Of a DNA stretch of 64,000 nucleotides, positions 43,131 to 43,936 are shown in pieces. The position numbers and the translations under genes are program-made. The first letter of the stretch is position 1, and every line of letters begins with the position of its first letter. The notes beneath the pieces are model-generated. The model did not search any database. It had not been told where the DNA came from and was given only the letters and a program-made list of their open reading frames with translations. This DNA comes from Eledone cirrhosa (lineage: Eukaryota): the NCBI GenBank assembly GCA_964016885.1, contig OZ024745.1, positions 40,114,001 to 40,178,000 of the forward strand, written 5' to 3'.

Positions 43131-43936
43131 TAGATAATTTAATATATCTACTAACATAAGCGCACAGATGTACGCTAATGCCAGCATATACACAGGTTAT
43201 GTCATAGTACCTAGCTGGTTCAATGAAGGAGGATGCAGAACAATAATATAAAAGACGTAAAATAAGAAGAATTTTTAAAGAAAGTTTTAAAAAATTAACT
43301 TACTTACTTAAATTTTCACTCCAACTAATTAGTTTCTGCAATGGGATAAAGACAGTTACGTAATGAACTGTTGAGAATTTCATTGCGTCATCAGGGAGGT
43401 CTATTATCAGCCAAGTTTCCAGGAAATGCGCGGACACTGGGGACTCATATAAAATTAATAATAATTCGGTAAATGGAACAGCTATCGGGGACTGGATTCC
43501 AGGCACTGAAAATTCTCACTGCCACTGGTCAAATGGCCGATTCTAAAGAATCAATCACGTGACACTGAGGCTAGTCGGTAGGAATGGGATAGTAAGATGA
43601 CAGACGCCTACTAACACCCCCCAAAAAAAGTGTGTAGCTGTTTTGGCAGGTTTGCTCGACAAATTAGTGATTTGGAGATAAATATAGATAATTTAATATA
43701 TCTACTAACATAAGCGCACAGATGTACGCTAATGCCAGCAAATACACAGGTTATGTCATAGTACCTAGGTGGTTCAATGCAGGAGGATGCAGAACAATAA
43801 TATAAAAGACGTAAAATAAGAAAACTTTTACAGAAAATTTTAAAAAATTAACTTACTTACTTAAATTTTCACTCCAACTAATTAGTTTCTGCAATGGGAT
43901 AAAGACAGTTACGTAATGAACTGTTGAGAATTTCAT
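43131..43936 (-). mobile_element. Partial-tandem (554-bp period) non-coding hammerhead element between (TA)n tracts
   Basis: 43131-43383 is repeated at 43685-43936. The second copy is cut by (TA)n inside HHR stem II. Confidence 0.8.
43319..43398 (-). ncRNA. Type I hammerhead, canonical core, extended stem II
   Basis: CTCC-CTGATGA-cGCAATG...CATTGCa-GAAA-CTA at TAG-TT-GGAG, with palindromic ACTAATTAGT stem III. Confidence 0.85.

Follow-up and report, generated by a model that had tools for sequence, protein, structure and literature searches.

Li et al. 2026 (bioRxiv 10.64898/2026.07.22.740005) described animal retrozyme-type elements, 51-972 bp in size, as non-autonomous derivatives of Penelope-like elements (PLEs). 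Non-LTR retrozymes are ORF-less tandem units that carry a type I hammerhead, co-occur with PLEs, have a GC content below 50% and give a unit RNA predicted to be highly self-paired (PMC7229834; Li et al. 2026); units of 150-450 bp were reported by Cervera & de la Pena 2020 (PMC7229834), and eight of nine predicted Xenopus retrozymes showed no cleavage in vitro (Li et al. 2026). The canonical type I hammerhead is defined by a helix I of 6 bp, a helix II of 4 bp, a loop-loop contact and a stem II closed beside the core, and the hammerheads of PLEs by a short helix I (4-5 bp), an enlarged helix II, an extra nucleotide after A9 and a palindromic helix III (PMC4209133). Partial head-to-tail tandems (pLTRs) are an ordinary footprint of PLEs, coding or not, and (TA)n is the preferred target of the Hydra, Neptune and Naiad clades (PMC8557442). 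The only PLE assayed in vitro, the anole Poseidon protein (PAc), makes nicks in AT-rich DNA and initiates reverse transcription at an RNA-internal stem-loop 3' of the hammerhead; its substrate is mainly unprocessed RNA, and hammerhead cleavage is dispensable (PMC11167929). In the O. vulgaris genome, PLEs amount to 6.83% (PMC13282606). All comparisons made here refer to the accessible portions of the cited sources.

The insert analyzed here lies on the minus strand of the window, that is, of the whole 64-kb stretch of Eledone cirrhosa DNA under study, and its features are collected in Table 1. Its period is 553 nt when measured from H17 to H17 (43876, 43323), or 554 when a 1-nt insertion in the downstream copy is counted, and the segment 43936-43678 recurs as 43383-43124 with ~97% identity. 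The 5' end, 43936, is located inside stem II of a hammerhead, its first AT being common to the insert and the TA tract; the last unique base, 43133, is located 190 nt past H17 and is followed by TATAT, which is also found within the unit. Both ends adjoin TA directly and host DNA is not duplicated. GC content is 37.6%. TA tracts stand on both flanks in place of any adjacent RT or GIY-YIG ORF, the nearest PLE ORF relic starting at 45798 on the opposite strand. The insert itself has a longest ATG ORF of 29 aa and a longest stop-free stretch of 78 aa, the unit having also been read as a circle, and none of 102 PLE-related proteins matched it by tblastn, a search in which a coding control produced 40 alignments. 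These observations bore out most of a preliminary description of the locus, which had reported a period of 554 bp repeated 1.45 times (1.46 by our count), a start within stem II and an end ~190 nt past the GUU, (TA)n on both sides, and absence of an ORF. Its claim that the insert is unrelated in sequence to the array at 40-42 kb also held, no similarity being detected between the two (z 0.74 and -0.44).

Table 1. Coordinates of the insert, its hammerhead and the related features of the window.
Feature	Position	Strand	Remarks
Whole insert, no ORF	43133..43936	-	804 nt, up to 809 with the common TATAT; 1.45-1.46 units
Upstream partial unit, 5'-truncated, pLTR-like	43682..43936	-	Begins within hammerhead stem II; without CUGAUGA
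Single-copy middle of the unit	43384..43681	-	298 nt, no ORF
Downstream copy of the duplicated segment	43128..43383	-	7 differences from the upstream copy, 254 aligned columns
TATAT, 3' junction microhomology	43128..43132	-	Common to element-internal sequence and target tract
(TA)n, insert 3' end	42953..43147		Tract is also the end of element B, tail-to-tail
(TA)n, insert 5' end	43935..44138		
Complete type I hammerhead motif	43319..43398	-	Predicted cleavage after GUU at 43323
Stem I, 4 bp	43398-43395 with 43322-43319	-	
CUGAUGA	43394-43388	-	C3 at 43394
Stem II region, 51 nt	43387-43337	-	C·A mismatch, 6-bp helix, internal loop, 6-bp hairpin
GAAA	43336-43333	-	G12 at 43336
Stem III, 10-nt perfect palindrome	43324..43333	-	Self-duplex -9.0 kcal/mol; predicted pairing with the upstream copy
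Half hammerhead	43872..43936	-	3' part of stem II, GAAA (G12 43889), palindromic stem III, GUU (H17 43876), GGAG
Strong predicted hairpin just 5' of the 3' end	43142..43193	-	Candidate RT-binding/initiation signal
Tandem array, 422 bp	40000-41900	+	Compact PLE-type hammerhead 41531-41561
Element B, ORF-less partial tandem, 503-bp period	42293-42952	+	Type I hammerhead
Element E, ORF-less partial tandem, period about 480-520 bp	about 760-170	-	Type I core 377-308
Family F	42045-42295, 60516-60780, 61970-63124	-	Predicted sites 42109, 60576, 62085, 62619
Decayed Neptune-like PLE	51900-54041	+	RT relatives, C-x4-C-x2-C, GIY-YIG region; 843-nt 3' UTR
Decayed Hydra-like PLE copy	45798-48241	+	3' UTR about 1.3 kb
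Decayed Hydra-like PLE copy	57375-60005	-	3' UTR about 1.3 kb
Third relic	50671-51770	-	

Chance does not account for the hammerhead core: six sites in the window matched a strict type I descriptor, which had been drawn up once the motif was seen, whereas 60 block-shuffled windows averaged 0.017 matches and none of them (0/60) reached six. The insert contains only one complete core, the upstream copy lacking CUGAUGA, and H17 is a U at both cleavage-site positions. The motif had been called a canonical, long-stem-II hammerhead. The complete type I motif and the long stem II stand; 'canonical' does not, helix I having 4 bp in place of the 6 bp of metazoan type I motifs and the 51-nt stem II region starting with a C·A mismatch, with no match in Rfam. 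The Rfam scans gave 0 hits for the whole window at gathering score and 0 matches for the insert alone, and an E-value scan of 42-46 kb (E up to 10) returned 48 matches, none of them a hammerhead and nearly all of them miRNA models placed on TA repeats or on an inverted repeat. All the features listed above for PLE hammerheads are present in the insert motif, which, as judged by these sequence traits, is of the PLE type and not canonical. PLE-X1_cBra (PMC8557442 table) resembles the motif both in a further A before G12 and in the C·A mismatch. Among the 25 Hydra-clade families of that table, nearly all of which prefer (TA)n, a mismatch at the base of stem II was counted by eye in 15 and a U at the cleavage site in 10. 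The length of stem II is the unusual feature of the insert's hammerhead: in none of the 25 published Hydra-clade families does the region exceed about 26 nt, while the 51 nt found here come near the about 54 nt of PLE-X1_sMoe (PMC8557442).

Folding of the 72-nt motif alone was no better than that of its shuffles (z -0.10), and the hammerhead fold (-11.9 kcal/mol) was less stable than the best alternative (-14.7 kcal/mol). When the 806-nt transcript of the insert was folded, stem III paired at long range with a probability of 0.60, versus 0.026 locally, and stem I paired with the upstream GGAG with a probability of 0.19, versus 0.12 locally. The predicted fold is of the dimer type, in which the only complete core would be positioned to act at the upstream site; a dimer-type stem III is also a trait of the axolotl retrozyme. 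The unit was more structured than its shuffles (z -3.2, and -4.9 and -2.8 in further calculations; 25-40 shuffles each), the hammerhead strand giving z -3.2 versus -1.5 for the other strand. The 85-nt 3' end that includes the hairpin of Table 1 folded at -26.7 kcal/mol (z -2.89; 2 of 200 shuffles were as good), and the hairpin ends about 10 nt before the TATAT of the 3' junction. Folding does not separate a circular from a linear template.

Set against the non-LTR retrozymes, the insert agrees in its ORF-less tandem unit, type I hammerhead, PLE co-occurrence, low GC and predicted self-pairing, and differs in its PLE-type hammerhead with a 51-nt stem II, where theirs is canonical, and in its position in (TA)n (PMC7229834; Li et al. 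2026). Its 553/554-bp unit exceeds the range of Cervera & de la Pena 2020 and falls within that of Li et al. 2026. The latter authors call active those elements with two complete hammerheads; the insert has 1.46 units and one core, and was therefore assigned to the retrozyme-type, non-autonomous PLE insertions rather than to the active arrays. Resemblance to the 3' ends of EN+ PLEs of the Hydra and Neptune clades (PMC8557442; PMC4209133) extends to the partial tandem, the (TA)n target, a sense hammerhead some 100-200 nt from the 3' end, a short stem I, a mismatch at the base of stem II and the frequent GUU; unlike these PLEs, the insert has no RT/EN ORF within its period. Non-autonomous Chlamys PLEs such as MRC1 (PMC8557442) are likewise non-coding, pLTR-forming, often head-to-tail and microsatellite-targeted; however, they are green-algal and mostly without hammerheads, and their 3' similarity to autonomous partners is clear whereas that of the insert is only suggestive. 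The cricket repeat pDo500 (PMC2837043) also combines a ~500-bp unit with a hammerhead for which single and double folds were proposed, but it forms long satellite arrays (about 5% of one genome) with a compact 49-nt ribozyme, whereas the insert is dispersed and spans 1.46 units.

The insert is one of several ORF-less hammerhead-bearing repeats in the window. Four others were found, with periods of 422 (the array), 503 (element B), about 480-520 (element E) and 534 bp (family F), of which the 422-bp array and family F form ORF-less arrays of at least two units. Element B is placed tail-to-tail with the insert in one TA tract; its hammerhead has C3 at 42798, GUA at 42866 and a 49-nt stem II with an A·G mismatch, and the element is joined at its 5' end to family F in inverted orientation, by way of a short common sequence at the catalytic core. 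Like that of the insert, the end of element E coincides with an internal TATAT-type sequence matching the TA target. Of the five ORF-less units folded, two (E and F) were not unusually structured, while B and the array were, in a comparison made noisy by the 25 shuffles used for each; the array unit was the most structured of those tested (z -5.8). Further type I hammerheads occur on the plus strand at 45226-45556, with a 95-nt stem II region, and at 61013-61058, with one of 26 nt; about 100-180 nt of tail and then a microsatellite follow each of them, and both are probably truncated PLE 3' ends.

Coding PLE relics are abundant nearby, the window holding many decayed PLE-like ORFs, and the named best relatives of one window PLE RT were proteins of Octopus bimaculoides (66% and 62%) and Argonauta, which points to a likely octopod host. 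Downstream of its ORF, the Neptune-like relic bears a type I core (53767-53875) whose stem II, 90 nt long, opens on an A·A mismatch followed by G-C, together with a palindromic stem III and a degraded stem I; a 166-nt tail and then (TA)n follow, and its clade is a candidate for that of the insert's mobilising partner. In two Hydra-like relics, the distance from the site of a long-stem-II core to the end of the copy is 21 and about 100 nt; the core of the first reads U3/A8, a covariant form that has been reported from Schistosoma PLEs. The labels Neptune-like and Hydra-like were assigned by motif reading against PMC8557442 and not by a tree. Pfam searches with 15 ORF relics gave RT or GIY-YIG matches in five; the Hydra-like and Neptune-2 RT fragments had no match and three longer relatives yielded nothing useful, so that the label Hydra-like rests on motif reading. 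Other decayed PLE-like RT/GIY-YIG ORFs were noted at 7824-9535 (+), 16225-17493 (+) and 23948-25623 (-), the end of the first recurring with a compact hammerhead at 4647-4400 (-). Inverted-repeat junctions flank PLE relics at 45640-45740 and 54400-54850, as described for inverted 5'-truncated PLE copies. RT fragments that are LINE-like and not of PLE origin lie at 34116-35301 (+; Pfam RVT_1, E 7.6e-06), and a short repeat at 44340-44500 (-) resembles an octopus SINE.

Relatives of the insert were searched for within and beyond the window. Neither a second copy nor a source array occurs elsewhere in the 64-kb window; an exact 28-nt pattern of the element had 0 matches in bacterial and archaeal genomes, phage blastn with the element gave no match, and ARAGORN detected no tRNA genes. 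Short motifs of the insert and its neighbours that were tried were absent from the supplement of PMC8557442 as far as accessible, a file whose FASTA line breaks can hide matches. The closest approach to a coding partner was a weak colinear alignment of the unit with the Neptune-like 3' UTR: permissive scoring placed it first out of 408 overlapping chunks of the window, stricter scoring at ranks 6 and 42. Its single-test P of 0.004-0.008 (block shuffles) belongs to one of 26 region/strand tests, and nhmmer found nothing. The match is taken as a lead and not as homology. Several other apparent similarities were set aside. A 12-mer common to the insert and the Neptune-like tail is exact, but 24 of 100 shuffles did as well window-wide, so it is not significant. 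A motif near the 3' end of the insert that seemed common to element B proved to be a pattern comprising the insert's two copies and one chance-level match (three matches in the window; 23 of 100 shuffles had as many), and the alignment of the two elements gave P 0.10-0.16. Element E was not accepted as a homologue (P about 0.02). A z of 4.07 against the PLE3 UTR is likely compositional, the PLE3 tail being unremarkable under block shuffles (318/500), as is likely a z of 2.72 against the opposite strand of Neptune-1. Octopus Naiads were discarded as partners: inspected by eye, their 3' ends order the core differently and do not visibly resemble the insert.

Insertion was likely carried out by the RT/GIY-YIG endonuclease of a TA-targeting PLE acting on what was likely an uncleaved tandem transcript, a reading to which we give about an even chance in its entirety. 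The head-to-tail partial tandem (pLTR) and the 190-nt tail followed by (TA)n are features of non-autonomous PLEs, and the end of the insert is built like the ends of the window's TA-targeting PLEs, which supports insertion of the PLE type. Starting from what was directly observed (the period, the absence of an ORF, the motif, the TA flanks, the TATAT junction and like ends on coding PLE relics), the following course can be proposed. A tandem source locus elsewhere would be transcribed into a multimeric RNA, which a PLE protein of the Neptune or Hydra clade would bind in trans near the hairpin 43193-43142 while nicking (TA)n. Priming of cDNA by the nicked DNA would take place within the RNA, 190 nt downstream of the hammerhead site and aided by the internal UAUAU, and synthesis would cross two intact GUU sites and stop after about 805 nt, leaving the 5'-truncated upstream copy as a pLTR. 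According to the predicted folds, the hammerhead would cleave chiefly in dimeric form, held together by the palindrome of stem III; in addition it may, like those of known retrozymes, set free monomers that then become circular.

Other sources of the repeated segment were weighed against this course. A local duplication of a single old relic at the DNA level, by slippage or unequal exchange between the TA tracts, or an error of assembly, would suit a microsatellite-dense region in which the element occupies one locus only. The seven sites that differ between the copies argue against a pure assembly duplication, both ends adjoin TA without duplicated host DNA, and the same partial-tandem geometry recurs in the unrelated elements B and E; we regard such an origin as very improbable. 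Alternatively, the insert could be the 3' end of a longer coding PLE, in which case no ORF-less family would exist. The RT would have copied 554 nt of a long 3' UTR and then returned to its 3' starting point, unless a second truncated copy had landed beside the first. With 3' UTRs of about 450-1350 nt among the window relics, a 554-nt truncated copy would show no ORF, the TATAT at the junction of the two copies could be a remnant of target, and a short-homology junction of two different repeats does exist nearby, at 42295. Yet the unit, with z of -2.8 to -4.9, is far more structured than the 3' UTR segments of coding PLEs, none of which was unusual (4/4; z -1.4 to +1.3), four other unrelated ORF-less families with periods of 422-534 bp share the window, the equivalent junction of element B has no TA remnant, and the weak match to the Neptune-like tail crosses the junction (6 of 1000 shuffles, single test). 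Derivation from a coding PLE thus appears improbable.

If PLE-type insertion of an ORF-less element is retained, the nature of the template can be considered. A cleaved linear monomer would make synthesis stop after 190 nt, so the template must have been an uncleaved multimer or a circle, unless the enzyme jumped between templates. The preliminary description had taken the greater-than-unit length as the mark of reverse transcription around a circle. The length is compatible with a circle but not diagnostic of one, pLTRs being an ordinary PLE footprint, and the multimeric RNA given there as an alternative is at least as likely, since PAc uses unprocessed RNA; the wider proposal of a retrozyme-like, non-coding, RT-mobilised element apart from the 40-42 kb array is supported. 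A 553-nt monomer ligated into a circle by a host ligase and copied 1.46 times around by a PLE RT is a possible template, though we lean away from it. It would account for a cDNA that crosses the cleavage site twice with the junction intact, and the hammerhead strand of the unit has the strong predicted self-pairing noted above (z -3.2 vs -1.5); retrozymes of coral, mussel and axolotl accumulate as circles (PMC7229834), and circle-templated insertion is a published hypothesis (PMC7229834; PMC4209133). A circle would, however, give overlaps identical at insertion. The seven differences between the copies, none of which falls in the first 99 of the 254 aligned columns, are clustered and avoid the ribozyme part (four within 16 nt, P 0.019; first 99 nt spared, P 0.030; both post hoc, the cluster lying in A/T runs), which leans weakly to template units that already differed, as in a multimer. 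In addition, PAc works in vitro without need of cleavage and with unprocessed RNA as its main substrate (PMC11167929), and copying a circle would presumably demand strand displacement by the RT. RNA ligated at the GUU recreates the junction of the genomic tandem, so reads across it are indistinguishable from read-through. The clean single-event footprint of the insert bears on whether PLE enzymes copy circles or uncleaved multimers.

The insert keeps both copies of the stem III palindrome, so one CUGAUGA core may, as predicted, cut the upstream GUU. Extending the folding model, the single core could act there in a long-range double-hammerhead and then cut the downstream GUU to release one 553-nt monomer, a sequence of events that we consider rather unlikely. 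If it did occur, dispersed copies of just over unit length would be active sources, contrary to the rule of two complete hammerheads, and such copies would represent a class of cephalopod retrozymes with a long stem II that escapes the Rfam models.

Animal retrozymes as non-autonomous PLE derivatives having already been published, the insert adds modestly to them: it is likely a new member of this known kind and not a new kind of element. It is likely a cephalopod example, with a long-stem-II hammerhead invisible to Rfam. A literature search by titles and abstract starts, with most subscription papers outside its reach, found no report of a cephalopod retrozyme, and the word 'ribozyme' is not used in the accessible portions of the 2026 Octopus vulgaris repeat annotation (PMC13282606) and its supplement.

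Family F is possibly more novel than the insert. Its hammerhead core blocks run in the order site, GAAA, CUGANGA, which is the non-circularly permuted (SGC) order, and a descriptor for this order matched four times in the window against 0.05 in shuffles. At 61970-63124 it forms an ORF-less, TA-flanked tandem with a 534-bp period. In three aligned copies, 62 of 63 cells pair in the four proposed helices, which include a stem III of 5-6 bp, a covarying stem I and extra pseudoknot pairings; the three double changes of stem I are not significant alone, 35 of 500 shuffles scoring as high. Stem II is not a plain helix, and activity is for that reason uncertain. The accessible part of PMC10085705 reports no such motif in the genome of any known organism, one candidate with a different order excepted, and titles and abstract starts disclosed no link between Naiad and hammerhead permutation. 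The ends of the octopus Naiad consensus labelled 'HHR_half_core' in the supplement of PMC8557442 show, by eye, the same SGC order.
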